Of a stretch of DNA of 64,000 bases, positions 9,597-55,952 are shown piece by piece. Source of the stretch: an uncultured Candidatus Rokubacteria bacterium (GTDB taxonomy: Bacteria; Methylomirabilota; Methylomirabilia; Rokubacteriales; CSP1-6); contig CAWHBD010000001.1 of assembly GCA_963827505.1 (NCBI GenBank), positions 1,670,663-1,734,662 of the forward strand. The letters are read 5' to 3'. The position numbers and the translations under genes are program-made. Within the stretch, counting starts at the first letter, position 1; the number at the start of each line of letters is the position of its first letter. The notes below the pieces were generated by a model. The model saw only the letters and a program-made list of their open reading frames with translations. It was not told the DNA's origin and did not search any database.

Positions 9597-10816
9597 ATGC
9601 GGAACGCAATTCCGACATGGGAACGGGCGGCGGCGCCGCCGCGGAGCATCCGAGGCCGCGTTGCCGTGGCGGGCGTCGGCGAGACGACCTACTACAAGCA
9701 CGGCCAGGCGCCGGAGCCCGAGGTCAAGTTGGCGCTGCAGGCCATCCTCGCCGCCTGCGCCGATGCTGGCATCGAGCCGCGTGCCATCGACGGCTTCGCG
9801 TCCTACAGCAACGACCGCAACGATCCCTCACGACTGGCCGCCGCGCTCGGCATGCCGGAGCTGCGCTTCTCCAACATGCAGTGGGGCGGCGGCGGCGGCG
9901 GCGGCTCGGCCGCGGTGGGCAACGCGGCGGCGGCGATCGCCGCCGGCTACGCCGACTGCGTGGTCGTGTTCCGCGCGCTCGCTCAGGGCCAGTTCCAGCG
10001 CTTCGGGGCGGCGCCCCCGGCGCCCACCGCTTCCGGCGAGGCGGCGCTGACGTTTCCCTACGGGCTGATCTCACCGGCCCAGCGCTTCGCGATGCGGGTG
10101 ATGCGCTTCATGCACGACCACGGCATCGGCCCCGAGGCGCAGCGGGCGATCGCGCTGGCCTCCTATCACCACGCGCAGAACAACCCCCGCGCGGTCATGC
10201 ACGGGCGGCCGCTCACGCCCGAGGCGTACGACGCCTCGCGCTGGATCGTGGAGCCGTTCCGGCTCTTCGACTGCTGCATGGAGAACGACGGCGCCGCCGC
10301 GCTGATCCTGGTCGCGGCCGAGCGCGCGCGCGATCTGCGCCAGCGGCCGGCCTACCTGCTCGGCGTGGCCCAGGGCTCGGAGTACCGCAACGCCGCCCGC
10401 GGCCACAACGCGCCGACCTACGCCTCGGCCAGCTTCACCACGGTGGCCCCGCACCTGTACGCGATGGCCGGCGTCACCCCCAAGGACGTCGACGGTGGTG
10501 CAGAGCTACGAGAACTTCACGGGCGGCGTCCTCATGAGCCTGGTCGAGCACGATTTCTTCGAGCCGGACGAGGCCACCGACGTTCCTCACGCTCGACAAC
10601 CTGATCGCGCCGGGCGGGCGCCTGCCGCTCAACACGAGCGGCGGCAACCTCGCCGAGTGCTACATGCACGGGCTCGAGCTCCAGATCGAGGCGGTGCGCC
10701 AGCTCCGCGGCCAGTCGACCAACCCGGTGCCGGGGGCGCGCGTCGCCATGGTCATCTCGGGCCCGATGGTCACACCGGTGTCGAGCATGATCCTCGGCAC
10801 CGAGGACACGCTGTAG
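9597..10816 (+). pseudogene. Thiolase-like / SCP-x-type lipid-transfer protein, interrupted by two +1 frameshifts (or indel errors)
   Basis: Frame 0 (RVAVAGVGETTYYKHG...GVTPKDVD) continues in frame +1 at about 10494 (VVQSYENFTGGVLMSLVEH...EATD). It continues again in frame +2 at about 10582 (FLTLDNLIAPGGRLPLNTSGGNLAECYMHGLELQIEAVRQLRG...) to TAG 10814-10816. Confidence 0.8.
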
Positions 10817-26289: not shown

Positions 26290-26298
26290 CTACCGCAC
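26281..26298. other. Perfect 18-bp palindrome GTGCGGTAGCTACCGCAC spanning both stop codons of two abutting convergent genes
   Basis: Seen directly. The plus-strand gene ends GTG CGG TAG at 26289 and the minus-strand gene ends GTG CGG TAG at 26290. There is no intergenic spacer. Confidence 0.6.
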
Positions 26299-26853
26299 GG
26301 CCGGCGGCGATGCGCCGGGCGACTTCGTGCGGTCCAGCGCCGGCCACCGCTGGGCAACCTCCGGCAGCGGCGTCTCCTTGCCGGTCAGGCGCTCGATGGT
26401 GAGAACGTACAGCGTGATCTCACCCAGCCGCGGGAAGAACTCGCGGGGCCGCTCCCACGCCGGATCGCCGTACTTGCGCATCAGCTCGGCGAAGAAGCGG
26501 GCGCGGGCCGCCTCGGACTCGACGACGCGCAGGATCCCGAAGGCCACGACGCTGCGGTAGGCCACCGAGGTGTCGCACTCGAACCGCCCGTAGGCGAACA
26601 CGTCGCCCGCCTCGTCCACCTCGAAGCACACGCGCGACTCGTGGTCGACGTTGCGGCGCAGGTGGCCGGGCGCCCGGGCATTGTGCAGCCACACCTGGCC
26701 GTCCAGCCACACGTACAGCAACGGCACCACGTACGGCCAGCCGTCAGGCCCCACGGTGCCCAGCCGCCCGCAGAAGCCCCCGGCCAGCGTCTCCCGAGCC
26801 CGCTCATCGGACATCAGCTTGTCGACGCGGCGCACCTGCGGCGGCCCGCTCAT
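26290..26853 (-). CDS. Pyridoxamine 5'-phosphate oxidase family (FMN-binding split-barrel) protein
   Basis: ATG 26853 (MSGPPQVRRVDKLMSDERARETLAGGFCGRLGTVGPDGWPYVVPL). The part of the ORF upstream of that ATG is Arg/Pro junk. Confidence 0.78.
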   Translation of the reverse strand: MSGPPQVRRVDKLMSDERARETLAGGFCGRLGTVGPDGWPYVVPLLYVWLDGQVWLHNARAPGHLRRNVDHESRVCFEVDEAGDVFAYGRFECDTSVAYRSVVAFGILRVVESEAARARFFAELMRKYGDPAWERPREFFPRLGEITLYVLTIERLTGKETPLPEVAQRWPALDRTKSPGASPPAVR

Positions 26854-26863
26854 CCGCCGCTCC

Positions 26864-27283
26864 TCAGCGCGTGGGGCCGGGCGGCGGCGGGGGCGGCGTG
26901 GCCGGGGGTGGTGTCGGCGTGCTCCGCGGTGGCGCGGGCGTGGCGGCCGGGGGTGGCGGCGGGGGCGATCCCGGCGGAGGTGGCGGCGCGCCGGGCGGGA
27001 GCGCACTGGCCGGCGGGCACCGGAAGACCTGTGCATACACCCTCGACATGTCCTCGATGCCGAAGGTGAGCTGGGCGGTGTCGCCACCCAGTCGCACGAT
27101 CTTGCGGCGGAGGTCCTTGATCGAGTCGTCGCTGGCCGAGCCCACCAGCGTACAGCCTCGCGTCACGGCCGGGTCGGTCGTGAGCCGCACCCGGGCCATC
27201 GCGATGCGCTCGAGATCCTGGGCGGTGGCGGTCGAGGCCGTCGCGAGCAGCAGCACCATCAGGCATCCCACGCGGGTCGTCAT
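26864..27283 (-). CDS. Hypothetical exported protein (possibly DUF4156-like) with a polyproline tail
   Basis: 139 aa with a signal peptide (MTTRVGCLMVLLLATASTATA). A roughly 75-aa globular part ends VFRC, followed by PPGAPPPPPGSPPPPPPAATPAPP.... Codon third positions are GC-rich, as in neighbouring genes. Confidence 0.55.
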   Translation of the reverse strand: MTTRVGCLMVLLLATASTATAQDLERIAMARVRLTTDPAVTRGCTLVGSASDDSIKDLRRKIVRLGGDTAQLTFGIEDMSRVYAQVFRCPPASALPPGAPPPPPGSPPPPPPAATPAPPRSTPTPPPATPPPPPPGPTR

Positions 27284-27287
27284 GCCG

Positions 27288-28904
27288 TTACTGTAGCCTC
27301 CTCGCGGCTTCCTCGCGCAGCTTCACCTTCTGGATCTTGCCGGAGCTGGTCATCGGAAAGTCGTCGACGAGCAGGACGTGGCGGGGGATCTTGAAGCTGG
27401 CGATGCGGCCCCGGCAGTAGGCCACGACCTCCGCCGCGGTCACCTGCTGGCCCGGCTCGCAGCGCACGAACGCCACGCCGACCTCGGTCAGTCGCGCATC
27501 GGGAACGCCGACCACCGCCGCCAGGTTGATGGCCGGATGGCCCATGAGATAGGCCTCCACCTCCATCGGATCGACGTTCTCACCGCCAATCTTCAGCATG
27601 TCCTTGTAGCGCCCGACGAAGCGTAGGTGGCCGTCGGCCCGCAGCAGTCCCATGTCACCGGTGTGCATCCAGCCCTCGGCATCGATGGCGGCGGCCGAAG
27701 CCTCCGGCTTGTCGTAGTAGCCGCGGGTGACGGTGTAGCCGCGTACCCAGATCTCGCCGGCGACGCCGGTCGGCTGGCCGCGCGCCGTGGCGGGATCGAC
27801 GATGCGGATCTCGTAGCCGGGCGCCGGGTAGCCGGAGGCCTCGCACGACTGCTCCTCGGTGGAGTCGAGGCTGCCGATGGCGACGCCCACGCCGAACTCA
27901 CTCATGCCGTAGCCGGACACCAGCGGGCCGAACAGCGCGCGGGCCCGCCGGGCCACCGGAGTGGAGCTGGCCATGCCGGCAGCGAAGATACCGGTGCGCA
28001 CCGCGGACACGTCGCGCGCCTTCCGTCCGTGGGCCTCGATGAGCTCCTTGTAGTGGGTGTCGAAGCCGTGCAGCACGGTGGCCCGCTCGCTCTCGATGAG
28101 CGCGAGGCTCTCGTCGGGGTCGAACCCCTCGGTCAGCACCTGACGGGCGCCGGACACCATCGAGGTCAGCATGCCCTCGGAGAAGGCGAAGAGGTGGAAC
28201 AGCGGCAGGTACATCATGATGGCGTCGTGCTCGGTGATGGCCAGCCGGAAGGCCCGGTCAGTCACGTTGCGAATCATCCGATGGCTGTGCATCACGCCCT
28301 TGGGAAAGCCCGTCGTCCCCGAGGTGTACATGAGGAAGGCGAGGTCCTCGGGATCGACCGCCTCCGCGGGCGCGGCCAGCGCCGCCGGGGCCACCGCCGC
28401 CGCGCGCTCGAGCAGGTCGGCCCAGGCCACCGTTCCGGGCGGGCATTCGTCGCCGAGCACGACGACACTTCTGAGCTGCGGCAACCGGCTCGCCCGGCCG
28501 TCCACCGGTACCAGCTCGCGCACCATCGCGAGATAGTCGATGGGGCCGGAGCGCTCGGCCAGGATCACCGTGGTGGCGGTGGACTGCTCGAGGATGTAGG
28601 CGACGTCGTCGGTTCGCAGGCGGGTATTGACCGGGACCAGCACGGCGCCGATGCGCATCACCGCGAAGGCGATCTCGATCCACTCCGGACGGTTGAGCAG
28701 CCACAGGGCGACCTTGTCGCCGGGCCGGACGCCGAGGGACAGCAGCCCCCGAGCGGCCCGCTCGACACCAGCCTCGACCTGCGCGAAGGTCCATCGTCGG
28801 CCGCGGAAGCACAGCGCCTCCCGCTCGCCCCAGCGGCGTGCGGCCCGGGCGGGCAGTGCCCCCAGCGTCGACCCCGCGTTCGGCTTCAGTTGGCGCTCCT
28901 CCAC
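27288..28904 (-). CDS. AMP-dependent synthetase/ligase (acyl-CoA synthetase family)
   Basis: Best start is GTG 28904. Has the AMP-binding motif MYTSGTTGFPKGV, plus GDMG and the terminal SGKIQK. Confidence 0.88.
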   Translation of the reverse strand: MEERQLKPNAGSTLGALPARAARRWGEREALCFRGRRWTFAQVEAGVERAARGLLSLGVRPGDKVALWLLNRPEWIEIAFAVMRIGAVLVPVNTRLRTDDVAYILEQSTATTVILAERSGPIDYLAMVRELVPVDGRASRLPQLRSVVVLGDECPPGTVAWADLLERAAAVAPAALAAPAEAVDPEDLAFLMYTSGTTGFPKGVMHSHRMIRNVTDRAFRLAITEHDAIMMYLPLFHLFAFSEGMLTSMVSGARQVLTEGFDPDESLALIESERATVLHGFDTHYKELIEAHGRKARDVSAVRTGIFAAGMASSTPVARRARALFGPLVSGYGMSEFGVGVAIGSLDSTEEQSCEASGYPAPGYEIRIVDPATARGQPTGVAGEIWVRGYTVTRGYYDKPEASAAAIDAEGWMHTGDMGLLRADGHLRFVGRYKDMLKIGGENVDPMEVEAYLMGHPAINLAAVVGVPDARLTEVGVAFVRCEPGQQVTAAEVVAYCRGRIASFKIPRHVLLVDDFPMTSSGKIQKVKLREEAARRLQ

Positions 28905-32000: not shown

Positions 32001-32022
32001 GGGTCTCCTCCGCGCCGGCCGG

Positions 32023-49029: not shown

Positions 49030-50255
49030 GCGGGTCGGGCCGAGGCCTCGCGGTGGTCGGCGACCAGCCGGCCGCCCTTGAACACCAGCTGCAGCGTGCG
49101 GACGTGGTCGATGTCGTCCAGCGGATTGTCGCGGACGACGATGAGGTCGGCGAGCTTGCCGGCCTCGACGGTGCCGAGGTCGGCGCCCCGCCCCGAGACC
49201 TCGGCCGCGTGCTTCGTGGCCGCCTGCAGCGTCTGCCACGGCGTGGCGCCCGATTTCACCCACAGCCCCAGCTCCAGCAGCGCGCCCTCGCGCACGGGGC
49301 GCACGTCGGACCCGAGCGCCATCTTGAGGCCGGCCGCCAGCGCGCGACGGAACCACCCGCGGTGCTCGTCCACCGCCTCCTCCGCGCGCCTGATCAGGTC
49401 GGGGGTCAGCGCGCGCTGCTCCACCCACTGCTTCTCCCACCGGGTCGTGGCCTGGCCGGGGGTGAGATGCGTGATGCCGAGCGTGGGGACGTACCAGGCG
49501 GCGCGCTCACGGAAGAGGGCGAGACACTCGTCGTCCATGATGTAGCCGTGCTCGATCGAGTGGGCGCCCAGACGTAGCGCGGCTTTCACGGCATCGGCGC
49601 TCGCCGCGTGCGCCATCACCTTGAGACCGCGCTGGTGACAGATGGCGAAGGCCGCCTGCAGCTCCTCGGGCGTGAAGAACGAGTGCCAGTGGCGGTCCCA
49701 GGCCGGCCCCATGATGCCGCCGGTGAGGTTGAGCTTGACGTGGTCGACGCCGGCCTGGATGTGCTCGCGGATCGTGCGCACGAAGCCCTCGGGCCCGTCG
49801 CACGGCAGGGCGAAGCCGGTGCCCAGCGCGTGGCCGCCGGTGGTCGTGAGAAACCAGCCGCAGGTGACGAGCCGGGGGCCCACGTGCTGGCCAGTATCGA
49901 ACGCGTGCTTGAGGGCGACGTCGATGAAGTGGGGCGTGCCCGCCATGCGCAGGCCCGTCACGCCCCCCTCGAGCAGGGCGCGCTGCGCGTTGGCGAGGTA
50001 CTGCGCGGTCAGCTCGGGTACGCCGGCCTGCGGCACGCGGGGCCACTCGAGATGCACGTGGGCGTCCCAGAGTCCGGGGAGCAGGTAGGCGCCGCGCAGG
50101 TCGACGACCCGGGCGCCGCCCGTGACCGGCGATCGGCGTCCGTCGAGCACCTCGACGATGCGCTCGCCCTCGATGGTGACGCTGGCGCCCGCGGTGACGC
50201 CCGGCGTGACCGCGTCGATGAGACTCGCGTTGGTCAGGACGAGCGACGGCGTCAC
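49026..50255 (-). CDS. Amidohydrolase family protein
   Basis: GTG 50255 overlaps the upstream stop (GTGA). Contains LPGLWDAHVHL and the later metal ligands (MAHAAS..., IEHG). Confidence 0.85.
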   Translation of the reverse strand: MTPSLVLTNASLIDAVTPGVTAGASVTIEGERIVEVLDGRRSPVTGGARVVDLRGAYLLPGLWDAHVHLEWPRVPQAGVPELTAQYLANAQRALLEGGVTGLRMAGTPHFIDVALKHAFDTGQHVGPRLVTCGWFLTTTGGHALGTGFALPCDGPEGFVRTIREHIQAGVDHVKLNLTGGIMGPAWDRHWHSFFTPEELQAAFAICHQRGLKVMAHAASADAVKAALRLGAHSIEHGYIMDDECLALFRERAAWYVPTLGITHLTPGQATTRWEKQWVEQRALTPDLIRRAEEAVDEHRGWFRRALAAGLKMALGSDVRPVREGALLELGLWVKSGATPWQTLQAATKHAAEVSGRGADLGTVEAGKLADLIVVRDNPLDDIDHVRTLQLVFKGGRLVADHREASARPA

Positions 50256-51346
50256 GACACCTGGTCGGGCGGGGCGCCGAAGGCCGGCCGCACGTGCTCG
50301 CCGAAGCGGCGCATCGACGCCAGGATCTTGTCGTGGGCCAGGTAGCCGAAGCTCATCTGGCACAGCAGGTGGCGCACGCCGGCCGCGCGGAGCGCGGCCA
50401 CCTGCTCGGCCACGCGAGCGGCGGTGCCACACAGCGCGCCGGTCTCGAGTGACCACCGCACGGCCTCAGCGTCGGCCACGTCCGGGTCGTTGAACGGGTT
50501 GAGCAGCGCCGGCGCGATGTGAAAGTCGTCCGGATTGTAGGCGGCGCGGGCGTGCAGCATGTGCCGGCGGGTGTGCAGCACGGCGGCGGCCAGATCGTCC
50601 TCCGCCTCCGCCTGGCTGTCACCGACGTAGACGTGGCGCCACACGGCCACGTCGCGGCGCAGGCGCGTCCGCGTTGCTTCCGGGTGGCCGCCGGCGCGCA
50701 GGCCGTCCTCGTAGAGCGCGAGCCGCTCGGGCAGGACGGCGAGCGGCACCCGCGCGGTCAGGATGGGCACGCCCAGCCGCCCGCACTCGGTGAACGAGCG
50801 CGGCGTGACCACGCTGCGCCAGAGCGGAGGATGCGGGCGCTGGTAGGGACGCGGACGGAGCTCGGGCAGCCGGACCTGGTAGTACTTGCCCGCGAAGCGA
50901 AACGGCGCCTCCGTCCACGCGCGCGTCATCACCTCGATGGCCTCGGCGCTTCGCTCGGGCCCGTCGTCGCTGCGGAGCCCGTAGCCCACGTACTCGTACT
51001 CGTTGTAGAGCGAGCCTCGGCCCACGCCGACGTCGATGCGCCCGTGGCTCAGGTTGTCGAGCAGGGCCAGCTGCACGGCCAGCCGGATCGGGTGGCGCAG
51101 CGCCATCTGGATCACGGCGAAGCCGATGCGCACGCGCGTGGTGCGGGCGGCCACCGCGCTGGCGAACGGGATCGGGTCGCAGTAGACGGCCTCGCCGGTG
51201 AAGTTGTGCTCGGTGAGCCACACGCCGTCGAACCCGACCGTCTCCGCATAGCAGGCCTGGATCAGCTGCTCGTCGATGGCCGCCTGATCCGCCTCCGGCG
51301 AGGGCGAGTGAGCGAGGGTCAGCCAGCCGAACCGCATACCGTCCAT
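50252..51346 (-). CDS. LLM class flavin-dependent oxidoreductase
   Basis: 364 aa with FDGVWLTEHNF and GRIDVGVGRG. Confidence 0.88.
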   Translation of the reverse strand: MDGMRFGWLTLAHSPSPEADQAAIDEQLIQACYAETVGFDGVWLTEHNFTGEAVYCDPIPFASAVAARTTRVRIGFAVIQMALRHPIRLAVQLALLDNLSHGRIDVGVGRGSLYNEYEYVGYGLRSDDGPERSAEAIEVMTRAWTEAPFRFAGKYYQVRLPELRPRPYQRPHPPLWRSVVTPRSFTECGRLGVPILTARVPLAVLPERLALYEDGLRAGGHPEATRTRLRRDVAVWRHVYVGDSQAEAEDDLAAAVLHTRRHMLHARAAYNPDDFHIAPALLNPFNDPDVADAEAVRWSLETGALCGTAARVAEQVAALRAAGVRHLLCQMSFGYLAHDKILASMRRFGEHVRPAFGAPPDQVS

Positions 51347-51355
51347 TGAGTCGGC

Positions 51356-51709
51356 TCAGCAGCGCGCGTCGTCGGTGATGGTGAGGCTGACGGTGCCCGT
51401 GGCCGGGTCGTACTCGAAGTCGTTCCCGGCGCACTGCAGCTTCGGTGGGCCCATCAGCAGGCCGAGCACGGCGGCCTTGTCGGGCGGCCACTGGCCCTTC
51501 TCGGCCTGATAGCTCCGCACCAGGCCCTGCAGCGTGCCCAGGGTGGCGCGATCGGCGGCGAGCCGGCTGCGGTCGATCGGCCGGTCCTTCTGGAGCTGCT
51601 CGACGCTCTTCGCCGAGGAGGTGACGTATTGCATGAGGAAGTAGCCGCCGAGCGCGATCACGGCCACCACGATGAGGATCTCGATGAGGCCGAAGCCGCG
51701 GTGGTTCAT
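51356..51709 (-). CDS. Prepilin-type N-terminal cleavage/methylation domain protein (pilin / pseudopilin-like)
   Basis: ATG 51709 (MNHRGFGLIEILIVVAVIALGGYFL). 117 aa with C-terminal Cys residues (QCAG...DDARC). Confidence 0.72.
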   Translation of the reverse strand: MNHRGFGLIEILIVVAVIALGGYFLMQYVTSSAKSVEQLQKDRPIDRSRLAADRATLGTLQGLVRSYQAEKGQWPPDKAAVLGLLMGPPKLQCAGNDFEYDPATGTVSLTITDDARC

Positions 51710-51732
51710 GGAGGAGATCCTAGCACTCCGGG

Positions 51733-52081
51733 TTGCCTTGTCGTCGCCACGATGGTAAGTCTGCCGTCGTGTTCGTGATCGACCCCGGCCGGACCGACCT
51801 CGCCCTCGAGTTCCGGCACCGGCCGTTCGGGCCCCACAGCCCCGAGTTGCAGGCGGTGCTGAACGTGCTGCGGTCCTCGCAGCACTGCCAAAACCTCCTG
51901 CTCGATCTGCACGCGGCCCCACGCCGAGTGGGTGCTCGCCGAGAAGCAGCCCGGCGGCCGACCCCCTCGCCTCCTGCCCGGGCTCGTGTTCACGAGCGTC
52001 GAGGCCGCCGAGTGGCACGCGTTCCAGCTGCGCTGGGAGGCGGTCACCGGCCGGCCGCTGCCGCCGCTCGATCGCGAGTGA
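51733..52081 (+). pseudogene. Small protein preceding the DMFase-like gene (possible DmfA1-like small subunit), with at least one +1 frameshift
   Basis: The first frame reads ...VVFVIDPGRTDLALEFRHRPFGPHSPELQAVLNVLRSSQHCQNLLLD. From about 51908 the next frame reads TRPHAEWVLAEKQPGGRPPRLLPGLVFTSVEAAEWHAFQLRWEAVTGRPLPPLDRE*, to TGA 52079-52081. The start is uncertain (TTG 51733 or GTG 51769). The family assignment rests mainly on gene order and size. Confidence 0.4.
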
Positions 52082-52107
52082 GCGCTCCCGCGAACGTGAA
52101 CGTCCCG

Positions 52108-54342
52108 ATGCCGCGCGTGCTCGGCTACGCCGAGCCGCTCAGCGTCGAGCCGGGCGAGGAGATTCGCTTCATGGTCGGGACCCTCGACGGGCCCCGCCGC
52201 TATCGCGCCGAGGTCGTGCGGATGATCTGCGGCGACACGGGCCATCCCGGCCCGGCCTCCGGACCGTTCGCGTCCCGACGCCCATCGACGGCGAGCACGA
52301 GGGCACGCCCCAGGCCATCGACGCCGGTTCCTACGTCGATCGTCGAGCGCCCTGAAGCGTTCGCGGTCTCGTGCGCTTCACGCTGCAGGCCTTCATACAG
52401 CCCACCCGGGTGCCGGTCCGGCCGGCGCCGCGCCGGCAGGTCATCATGGGGACGTGGGCGGCGGACCAAGGCGACGGCTTCGCGCTGATGCTCGACGAGA
52501 CCGGCGCGCTCGCGGTCCTCGTCGGCACCGGCCCAGGTCGTCGACGGGCGCGCCCGCTCACCGCTCGCCGCTGGTACCACGTGGCGGCCGCGGTCGACCT
52601 GGCGGCGGGGACAGTGACGCTGCGCCAGACGCCGCTGGCGCGACCACACGCCGAGCCTCGAGCAGCCGGTGGTCGTGACGGCGACGGTCCGCGCGACGCC
52701 GGCGCCCGCCGCCGACTTCTTCCTCGGCGCCGCCCGCCACGCCATCGAGGACGGTCGGCTGCGCACGACGTGGCACTTCAACGGCAAGATCGACCGCCCG
52801 ACCCTGGCCCGGCGCGCACTCGCGGTGGACGAGCTGGCGGCCGCGGCGACGGCGCGCACCACCGTCGCTCGACGCCGCTGACGCGCTCGGGCTGTGGGAT
52901 CTCGCCGCCGACATGGCCACCGATCGCGTGAGCGATCGCTCGCCCAACCACTTGCACGGTCGCACCGTGAACGCGCCCAAGCGCGCCGTCACCGGCCACA
53001 ACTGGGACGGCACCGAGATGGACTGGCGCCGGGCGCCCGCACCAGTACGGCGCGATCCACTTCCACGACGACGACCTCTACGACGCCGGCTGGCGCCCGA
53101 GCCTGACGCTGACCGTGCCGGCCGACGTCCGCAGCGGCGTGTACGCGCTTCGGCTGCGACGCGGCCGGCGGCCCCGAGTTCTGGGTCGTGTTCTACGTGC
53201 GTCCGCCGCGCCGCGGCCCCCGAGCGCCGCGTGGCCTTCCTCGCCTCCACCGCGACCTACCTCGCCTACTCGAACTACCGCGCGCGCATGCGGCCGGGGC
53301 CGGCCGAGCTCTACATCGGCGCCCTGCCCATCGTGGACACGACCGACCTGCTGCTCATGCACCACCCGAGCTGGGCGGCTCCACCTACGACACCCACTCC
53401 GACGGCTCCGGCGTCTGCCACGTCTCGCGCCGGCGGCCCATCGTCAACGTGCGCCCGACCGGCCGCCTCTGGAACCTGTTCCTCGACTTGTGCCTGCTCG
53501 ACTGGCTGGAGGCCCACGACCAGCCGTACGACGTCGTCACCGACGACGATCTGCACGCCGAGGGGCTGACGCTCCTCGACGGCTACACCGTGGTCCTGAC
53601 CGGCTGCCATCCCGAGTACTACTCGCGCGAGATGCTGGACGCGCTCGCCGCCTATCTCGGCCGGGGCGGACGGCTCATGTACATGGGCGGCAACGGATTC
53701 TACTGGCGCGTGTCGTACCCGTCCGCGCATCCCGGGATGATCGAGATGCGCCGGGCCGAGGACGGTACCCGAGCGTGGGTGGAAGCGGTCGGCGAGTACT
53801 ATCACAGCTCAACCGGCGAGTACGGCGGACTCTGGCGACGGCAGGGCCGCGCGCCCAACGCACTGGTCGGGGTGGGGTTCGTGGCTCAGGGTTTCGACCG
53901 CTCGTCCTACTACCGGCGCACGGCGGCCAGCCGCGACCCCCGCGCCCGCTTCATCTTCGAGGGTGTCGCCGGCGAGATCCTCGGCGACTTCGGCACGGCC
54001 TGGGACGGGGCCGCCGGCCTCGAGCTGGACGCCTTCAACCCGAGCCTCGGCTCGCCGCCGTGGGCCCTGGTCGTCGCCTCGTCCGAGAATCACTCGAACG
54101 CCTTCCAGCTCGTCAACGAGGAGATGAACGTGTCGTTCGCCGGCGCCGACGGCCAGTTCTCGCCCGCGGTCCGGGCCGACATGGTGTTCTACGAGCATCC
54201 GGGCGGCGGGGCCGTCTTCTCGACGGGGTCCATCGCCTACGTCGGCAGCCTGGCCCACGCCGACTACGCCAACGACATCTCGCGCCTCACCCTGAACGTC
54301 CTGCGGCGGTTCCTCGACCCCGCGCCCTTCACCGCGCCGTGA
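52108..54342 (+). pseudogene. N,N-dimethylformamidase large-subunit (DmfA2)-like protein, broken by about nine single-nucleotide frameshifts
   Basis: Conserved blocks are spread over all three frames. They include MPRVLGYAEPLSVEPGEEIRF...ICGDTGHPGP, GLRTVRVPTPIDGEHEGTPQAIDAGSYV, IVERPEAFAVS, VRFTLQAFIQPT...RRWYHVAAAVD, LEQPVVVTATV...WHFNGKIDRP and ADALGLWDL...GHNWDGTEMDW. They continue with HQYGAIHFHDDDLYDAGW, EFWVVFYVRPP, RVAFLASTATYLAYSNY and ELGGSTYDTHSDGSGVCHVSRRRPIVNVRP, then run to the C-terminus at 54342. Confidence 0.8.
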
Positions 54343-54358
54343 CCGGCGCCTTCGAAGC

Positions 54359-55744
54359 TCAGGCCTTGCCGGGGACCACCGCGACGTAGAGCGCGACGTC
54401 CCCCCGCTCGAGGCGGACGTTCAGCCGCTCGCCCTTCCGGGCCTCGCGGGTGGCGCGCTCGAAGTCGGCGAGCGTCCGCACCGGCTGGCGGTTCACCTCC
54501 ACGATGACGTCGCCGCGCTGGATCCCGGCCTCGGCGGCGGCCGTGCCCTCGTCCACCCGGGTGACGACGACGCCCTCGGACGAGCGCCGATTGAGCTCAC
54601 GCGCGACGTCCGGCGTGAGCGGGCGCACCTCGAATCCGAAGCGAGAGGGGTGTCGCTCGCCCGGAGTCTCGCCGAGGACGGCATCGACCGTCCGCGCGGC
54701 GTTGTCGCGCCACAGCGTGATCTTCGTCCGGCGGCCGGGGGCGCCCAGGCCCACCGCGCGGGCCACGTCGGCGGCGTGCTCGATCTTGCGGCCGGCGACC
54801 TCGAGGACGACGTCGCCGGGCTTGAGCCCGGCCCGGGCAGCGGGACTGTCGGGCATCACCTCGGTCACGAGCACGCCCTTGCCGGGCAAGGCGGCCAGCT
54901 CCGGCGTAAGCGGCTGGAGCACGACCCCCAACCAGCCGCGCGTCACTTTGCCGTGCTCGACGAGCTGGGCCGCCACCCGCCGGGCCATGCTGGCCGGGAT
55001 GGCGAACCCGATGCCGGAGCCGCCACGCACGACCGCGCTGTTGATGCCGATCACCTCGCCGCGCATGTTGACCAGCGGCCCCCCGGAGTTGCCAGGGTTG
55101 ATGGCGGCGTCGGTCTGCAGGAAGTCGTCGTAGGGCCCGGCGCCGATCTGGCGGGCCTTGGCGCTGACGATGCCGGAGGTCACGGTCGCCTGCAGCCCGA
55201 AGGGCGAGCCGATCGCGAGCACCCAGTCACCCACCTGCACGTCGTTGGAGTCGCCGAGGGGCAGGAACGGAACACGCTTGCCGTTGACGTCCAGGCGAAG
55301 CACGGCCAGATCGGTCTTCTTGTCCGCACCGACGATCCGAGCCCGGTGCTTGGTGCCGTCGAGCATCGTCACCTCGATCTGGCTGGCGCCGTCGACGACG
55401 TGGGCGTTGGTCAGGGCGAGACCGGACGGGTCGATGATCACCCCGGAGCCCAGGCCGCGGCGGGGCAGGCGCTCGGGGGCGTCGCCATAGAACCGCCTGA
55501 AGTACTCCTCGCCGTAGAACTCCTCCAGCTGGGAGCGCCCGGCGCCCCGACGCTCGGTGTTGATGTTGACGACGGCGGGCTTCACCGCCTCGGCGAGCTT
55601 GGCGAAGGTGCCGGCGTCCAGCCGGAGCTGGACGGGGGTGAAGGCCGGTGCCGCCGTCGAGGTGGTGAGGTTGCTGCCGAGCAAGCCAGCCGACAGACCG
55701 AGGGTCAGGCCGAGGACGAGACCGGTCAGGGGACGGTTCTTCAT
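54359..55744 (-). CDS. Do/DegP/HtrA family periplasmic serine protease with two PDZ domains
   Basis: ATG 55744 follows GAGGAG. Has a signal/TM segment and the catalytic triad contexts TNAHVV, DLAVLRL and GNSGGPL. Confidence 0.9.
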   Translation of the reverse strand: MKNRPLTGLVLGLTLGLSAGLLGSNLTTSTAAPAFTPVQLRLDAGTFAKLAEAVKPAVVNINTERRGAGRSQLEEFYGEEYFRRFYGDAPERLPRRGLGSGVIIDPSGLALTNAHVVDGASQIEVTMLDGTKHRARIVGADKKTDLAVLRLDVNGKRVPFLPLGDSNDVQVGDWVLAIGSPFGLQATVTSGIVSAKARQIGAGPYDDFLQTDAAINPGNSGGPLVNMRGEVIGINSAVVRGGSGIGFAIPASMARRVAAQLVEHGKVTRGWLGVVLQPLTPELAALPGKGVLVTEVMPDSPAARAGLKPGDVVLEVAGRKIEHAADVARAVGLGAPGRRTKITLWRDNAARTVDAVLGETPGERHPSRFGFEVRPLTPDVARELNRRSSEGVVVTRVDEGTAAAEAGIQRGDVIVEVNRQPVRTLADFERATREARKGERLNVRLERGDVALYVAVVPGKA

Positions 55745-55952
55745 CGGAATGTGCTCCTCTGCAGGTGGGGGGCTGGTCAGACTGCGAACGCTCATGGCCG
55801 TGGTCCTTCGACGGCCTCGGGCGGTCCTTCATTCACGAGCCGGCGGGCGCTTCCCTGGTAGTCTGAGGCGCCGACCCTGGGGCCGCGGCCGGCCCGGACG
55901 CGAATACCACGAGGGCGCCGCCGTCTAACTCTCGTCCCCTGAAGGAGATCGC

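Follow-up and report, generated by a model that had tools for sequence, protein, structure and literature searches.

A two-gene locus resembling dimethylformamidase (DMFase) in the genome of an uncultured soil bacterium can be read only by changing reading frame again and again, which raises the question of whether these frame breaks belong to the organism or to its assembly. The locus lies in a 64-kb stretch of the assembly (G000:C1:1670663-1734662), referred to here as the window, and all positions are counted along it unless another contig is named. The assembly comprises 7.0 Mb in 4 contigs, with a GC content of ~72% and a completeness of 62.9%. The first gene of the pair, on the plus strand at 51765-52081, is a small-subunit-like ORF of ~104 amino acids that may start either with the GTG at 51765 or with the TTG at 51733. 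It is followed on the same strand by a DMFase-large-subunit-like amidohydrolase gene at 52108-54342, whose orthologue encodes 740 amino acids and which is here divided into 13 segments in alternating frames. The neighboring genes are on the minus strand and encode a luciferase-like monooxygenase (50252-51346), a small protein with a prepilin N-methylation motif (51356-51703), and an HtrA-type protease (54359-55795). A first-pass annotation of the window had listed nine frame switches in the large gene and one in the small gene, and had left two readings standing: either the gene is a pseudogene that began to decay very recently and mainly through indels, or the consensus is corrupted at this place, through low coverage or collapsed strain variants.

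To define the frame breaks, we aligned window positions 51690-54345 with the orthologous stretches of five genomes of the same genus (G003, G006, G007, G011, and G016) using MAFFT, and compared the window by blastn with G006 and with a metagenome contig, L068, described below. The alignments confirmed that the breaks are present in the deposited sequence. Thirteen indels private to the window were found across both genes from 51903 to 53365, a hot spot to which no strand is assigned, and all 13 were absent from the five related genomes. Eleven of these events added bases and two removed a single base. The small ORF is split by a +1 insertion at 51903. Within the large gene, single bases were inserted at 52336, 52530, 52539, 52556, 52639, 52862, 53035, 53157, and 53226, and single bases were lost at 52364 and 53365. 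The remaining event, at 52239-52252, is composite: it amounts to +5 relative to L068, G006, and G011 and to -1 relative to G007, G016, and G003, and breaks the frame either way. None of the insertions between 51903 and 53365 extended a homopolymer of three or more bases. No stop codon was found within its own frame in any of the 13 segments, all of which matched the G006 protein. Downstream of the last event, the 3' part of the large gene (53366-54342, plus strand; 325 codons and a stop) is undamaged, forming a single open frame without gaps relative to the relatives or to the two metagenome contigs introduced below. A further difference at 51712 (+1 relative to G006) was considered as an error and rejected; L068 has it as well, and it falls between genes, upstream of the pilin-like gene. 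G003 and G016, which are contiguous but incomplete bins, were found to carry their own, different private 1-nt indels in the DMFase gene.

All ten switches listed in the first-pass annotation were matched by a real indel within a few bases, and its observation that the segments are free of stops held for 13 out of 13. The list was incomplete, as it overlooked a group of three +1 events (52530, 52539, and 52556), which sum to +3 so that the frame is regained after 26 nt. An insertion it had placed in a C5 run at 53217-53221 is a genuine +1 event, but the real site is 53226, 5 nt past the run. Its estimate of about one indel per 250 nt was too low, the density across 51903-53365 being one per ~113 nt, while its claim of zero net shift for the large gene agrees with the net of +12 (0 modulo 3). 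The 31 kb upstream, described as free of indels, is nearly so, with one window-private +1 at 32019. Other breaks in the window were located at 10492, 10580, 18486, and 20141.

Using the 324 undamaged C-terminal amino acids of the large protein as query, we then searched metagenome contigs from JGI and other sources. This search uncovered two contigs from two samples, L068 (Ga0247825_10012619) and L069 (Ga0247830_10043500), with 99% amino-acid identity to the query. L068, from a soil metagenome, spans window positions 50355-54832 with 34 mismatches (99.2% identity), which makes it a near relative and not provably the same clone. Gaps between L068 and the window occurred solely at the 13 events, with none in the flanking 3 kb. 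L068 encodes an uninterrupted large protein of 740 amino acids and an intact small ORF of ~104 amino acids. L069, from the second sample, likewise lacks the four events that fall within its span. Mismatches to L068 occurred at a density of 0.96% within the hot part, compared with 0.67% in the remainder of the aligned stretch. A hot part that is a strain-variable stretch may explain the clustering of the indels, although the excess in mismatch density relative to L068 is slight.

If the locus were a real and very recent pseudogene, with decay biased towards indels, relaxed selection might be visible in its substitutions. We polarized the substitutions in the hot part of the gene with the other relatives and assigned 35 to the window branch (7, 8, and 20 at the first, second, and third codon positions), compared with 45 on the G006 branch (6, 7, and 32). 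Third positions dominate on both branches, and neither relaxed selection nor an excess of substitutions was seen on the window lineage. From these comparisons, the indels at 51903-53365 appear to be unaccompanied by extra substitutions. Some observations are compatible with decay: the indels do stand in the deposited sequence, a search of the genome found no second copy of the gene, and the enzyme is plausibly dispensable. Against this, an intact allele of 99.2% identity exists and the events are missing from two independent samples, the segments contain no stops, and, among the changes assigned to the window branch, indels and substitutions stand at ~1:3 within the hot part and at 0:22 over the remainder of the gene. 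In addition, single-base insertions predominate at the locus, while decay is expected to give deletions of varied length.

To determine how far such frame breaks extend beyond this locus, we scanned the whole genome. Briefly, a three-periodic nucleotide model was trained on long ORFs with high GC3 and used in a 7-state Viterbi frame tracker, and a change of frame on the same strand was counted as an event if no in-frame stop occurred within 45 nt. At least 1,927 switches were found in G000, a rate of 2.75 per 10 kb; +1 switches made up 1,581 (82%) of them. This count is a lower bound, as just 3 of the 13 indels at the DMFase locus were caught by the scan, and the false-positive rate of the scan in clean assemblies is ~0.07 per 10 kb. 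The switches are strongly clustered (variance-to-mean ratio of 2.4), forming 256 clusters of at least three and 107 clusters of at least five. The first-pass annotation had treated the problem as a local one, but it extends across the genome, and the DMFase locus is only one among 256 or more clusters. The window belongs to the cleaner parts of the genome, with 7 scan events compared with 14 in the median 64-kb stretch. Six of these seven proved to be true indels relative to G006. The seventh, at 27023, was rejected as a false positive; it reflects a Pro-rich C-terminal tail followed by the next gene and is shared with G006.

We applied the same scan to relatives of the same genus. Only 2 switches were found in 304 kb of the fragmented assemblies G011, G001, and G005, compared with 70 in 320 kb of the contiguous relative G007 and 15 in 176 kb of the contiguous relative G006. 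The rate of frame switching thus tracks the type of assembly and not the lineage, ranging from 0.85 to 2.8 per 10 kb in contiguous assemblies and being close to zero in fragmented ones. The contiguous assemblies, including G000, are presumably long-read assemblies. The genome-wide count also bears on whether the cell itself could decode the locus, by programmed frameshifting or another form of recoding. The segments do run on seamlessly in the next frame with their motifs intact, as would be expected if the gene were recoded. Recoding would nevertheless have to accommodate twelve frame-changing events in one gene with no slippery motif in common, events that are absent from all orthologues, including the 99.2%-identical allele, and ~1,900 such events across the genome. 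The existence of that intact, nearly identical allele already refutes recoding, the probability of which we consider to be negligible.

The breaks also affect essential genes. The match of an rpoB model to G000 was broken into six or more collinear pieces, with the frame changing at least five times, and rpoC matched in at least four pieces; the region containing both genes (C3:207-216 kb) holds 15 scan events. When rpoB of G000 was aligned with four relatives, 21 private inserted bases were identified in 3.57 kb, compared with none in G006, G007, or G005. An rpoB gene spread over six frames is incompatible with a living cell, and the breaks in rpoB and rpoC are therefore not real mutations. 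Damage to rpoB and rpoC equal to that at the DMFase locus would be intolerable for a living cell, and this, together with the intact allele and the lack of relaxed substitution, makes the pseudogene reading of the locus very unlikely. The other reading given in the first-pass annotation, a corrupted consensus, is the one that stands, and of the two causes named there the evidence points to collapsed strain variants.

We next analyzed the inserted bases themselves. At the DMFase locus, in 8 out of 11 insertion events the inserted base was the allele that relatives carry at the adjoining polymorphic site and differed from the window's own base there (random placement gives 0.21; binomial P = 3e-4). 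For example, CG stands in the window at 51903, 52639, and 53157, at sites for which the relatives carry either C or G, and TC stands at 52336, for which they carry either T or C. Both deletions removed exactly a polymorphic third-codon base. The same test in rpoB gave 13 out of 21 compared with a null of 0.097 (P = 6e-9). With the relatives available, the allele signature was absent for 3 of the 11 inserted bases at the locus and for 8 of the 21 in rpoB. Judged from these alignments, the duplication of alleles appears to be the signature of a consensus built from collapsed strain variants, that is, from two haplotypes.

These observations suggest a mechanism. Reads of two or more closely related strains would have been collapsed into a single consensus. 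At a single-base difference between the strains, the consensus would emit both alleles in tandem, producing an apparent +1, and would occasionally emit neither, producing an apparent -1. Errors would then cluster where the co-assembled strains differ, and the stretches on which they agree would remain clean. Because the indels are private to the assembly, absent from a near-identical sequence, spread across the genome including essential genes, and allele-duplicating, we conclude from these sequence comparisons that the frame breaks are very probably consensus errors of a mixed-strain metagenome assembly of long-read style and not mutations of the organism or signs of a decaying gene. How the sample was sequenced, and which step of consensus building or polishing introduced the errors, are inferred.

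An assembly artefact could also arise with no mixture of strains, through generic long-read errors, random or in homopolymers, left where coverage was low or polishing had failed. Such errors would likewise be genome-wide, clustered, and confined to contiguous assemblies, and they would account for the inserted bases that lack an allele signature. The homopolymer form of this explanation was rejected, since no insertion at the locus extends a run of three or more bases. GC bias or unpolished patches of high GC were rejected too: across the genome, the GC content around events equals the genome average (0.705 compared with 0.704 at random positions), which gives no sign that short-read polishing had failed in a GC-dependent manner. 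The neighboring alternative allele was moreover matched above chance both at the locus and in rpoB, at the P values given above, which generic errors would not be expected to do. We regard generic errors as an unlikely source of the breaks. It is also conceivable that the clustered +1 events at polymorphic sites are real in part of the population, for instance as scars of faulty heteroduplex repair in tracts of recombination between strains. This is highly improbable; if true, the scars would represent a new in-vivo process generating indels and not a consensus artefact.

The proposed collapse of strain variants into one consensus has counterparts in the literature. Collapsed alleles have been reported to introduce indel errors and apparent frameshifts into a long-read consensus assembly of Trypanosoma brucei (PMC8445201), and long-read metagenome bins with frameshifted genes have been described in the proovframe preprint (10.1101/2021.08.23.457338) and in a benchmarking of Nanopore MAGs (PMC9262707). 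As in long-read and collapsed-haplotype assemblies, the indels found here are single-base and assembly-private and split conserved genes throughout the genome. They also adjoin allelic variants and vanish in independent or phased sequence. In contrast to the T. brucei case, the "alleles" would be those of co-occurring bacterial strains in a soil metagenome and not of homologous chromosomes. The errors also differ from the known cases in kind, most being +1 insertions outside homopolymers in which a SNP is written out twice, once for each allele.

The frame breaks at the locus are thus not a biological feature, and the finding has consequences for the use of the assembly. G000 carries thousands of artificial frameshifts, and G003, G006, G007, and G016 are affected to a lesser degree. 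Calls of "pseudogene", "gene fusion", or "split gene" made on G000 are unreliable, and its completeness estimate of 62.9% has probably been depressed by frame errors. The signature of both alleles in tandem allows this class of error to be recognized without reads, from a handful of related genomes.

To characterize the gene pair beneath the errors, we analyzed its fragments together with its intact orthologues. The intact C-terminal ORF of the window (53188-54342) matched the Pfam domain DMFA2_C (PF20254) with an E value of 1e-65, confirming the family to which the first-pass annotation had assigned it; the window's fragments had no matches in NCBIfam. The G006 orthologue matched PF20254 (E 4e-94) and also Laminin_G_3, a concanavalin-like domain, and over its full length its best match in the PDB was 8HUY (E 1e-138), with 6LVB at E 9e-127. 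In the DMFase of Paracoccus, Y399, Y440, and E521 are the iron ligands of a 2-Tyr-1-Glu site, accompanied by H519 and N547 (PMC7686228). The residues aligned to all five are conserved in the orthologue, in the motifs TYLAYSNY, GSTYD, CHPEY, and GGNGFYW. The same catalytic-residue motifs were found within the window's segments, which bears out the first-pass statement that the family hallmarks are intact.

The small ORF is intact in G006, G007, and L068. It is conserved, at identities as low as 42%, in over 30 metagenome loci, where it lies immediately upstream of the large gene. Sequence searches with it were empty: phmmer against the PDB (E up to 10) returned only a chance-level match (E 1.2), and Pfam returned none. 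Its AlphaFold model (pLDDT 87.3, pTM 0.79) was compared with known structures using Foldseek, which matched the DMFase small subunit in 6LVB_B and 6LVV_B with a TM score of 0.73-0.74, an rmsd of 2.0 Å, 26% identity, and a probability of 1.00; the next match had a TM score of 0.24. It was thus the comparison of folds, and no other search, that identified the ORF as a DMFase small-subunit-like protein, and the predicted fold supports the label of a DMFase-like two-gene locus given in the first-pass annotation. Beneath the errors, the locus is thus predicted, from its sequence and the structural model, to code for an intact two-subunit DMFase-type iron amidohydrolase consisting of a large subunit and a DmfA1-like small subunit.

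The closest known system is the N,N-dimethylformamidase of Paracoccus sp. DMF (DmfA1/DmfA2; 6LVB; PMC7686228), which has the same two-gene order with the small gene directly upstream. The large subunit aligns with it over the full length and keeps the five catalytic residues, and the small-ORF model superposes on chain B. The locus differs from the Paracoccus system in its moderate sequence identity, in a small ORF that sequence searches do not detect, and in its host, an uncultured soil bacterium. The best sequence match of the large subunit is to N-acetyl-(R)-beta-phenylalanine acylase (PDB 8HUY and 8I59); those entries show the large chain alone, present as both chain A and chain B, whereas a conserved small-subunit partner accompanies the large gene in the window. 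Since DMF is a synthetic solvent, the native substrate is probably an amide other than DMF. The pair represents a DMFase-type amidase with a small subunit recognizable only by its fold, and it is conserved in many soil metagenome contigs. This conservation in soil points to a natural amide substrate for a family known mainly from the degradation of a synthetic solvent.

Outside the DMFase-like pair, five window-private +1 frame breaks were identified relative to the same-genus genome G006, at positions 10492, 10580, 18486, 20141 and 32019. The last of these lies within the 31 kb upstream of the pair that the first-pass annotation had judged to be free of indels, a judgement that nearly holds, with this single private +1 as the exception. 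The frame scan, which counts stop-less same-strand frame switches by GC3 periodicity, also reported a switch within 26290-27322 in both the window's own assembly (G000) and G006. This call was rejected as a false positive of the method. A small secreted-looking protein encoded on the minus strand (26864-27322) has a long proline-rich tail and overlaps the stop-to-stop frame of the downstream gene (26290-27162, minus strand), and the call is common to G006.

The contiguous assemblies of the relatives carry private frame-breaking indels of their own and are therefore not usable as error-free references. Those private to G006 fall at the window equivalents of 6300, 15491, 40583, 41047, 46962, 59887, 61016 and 61177, while G003 and G016 each have them inside the DMFase gene and G007 shows event clusters reaching 17 per 15 kb (L027). 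G006 also contains two rpoB copies (C12:179917-183171 and C4:779728-783273), one 96% and the other about 79% identical to that of G000, which suggests a mixed bin or contamination. Between rpoB and rpoC of G000 (C3, about 211310-211390; L057:271-346), a stretch of ~75 nt has dozens of 75-87% matches dispersed across the genomes of G001, G005, G006, G007 and G011, and is probably a dispersed hairpin repeat of the lineage.

Immediately 5' of the DMFase-like pair, and transcribed divergently from it, is a small 115-aa ORF (51356-51703, minus strand). Its N-terminus carries a methylation motif of the prepilin type, for which the Pfam N_methyl match falls just under the cut-off (E 2.5e-4). At the equivalent of 51346/51347, G006 has an extra 2.3 kb (C11, about 93342-95477) encoding a 711-aa repeat-rich, Ig-like, secreted-looking protein. 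Because this segment is absent not only from the window but also from L068, an independent soil-metagenome contig 99.2% identical to positions 50355-54832, the window arrangement is genuine strain or species variation.
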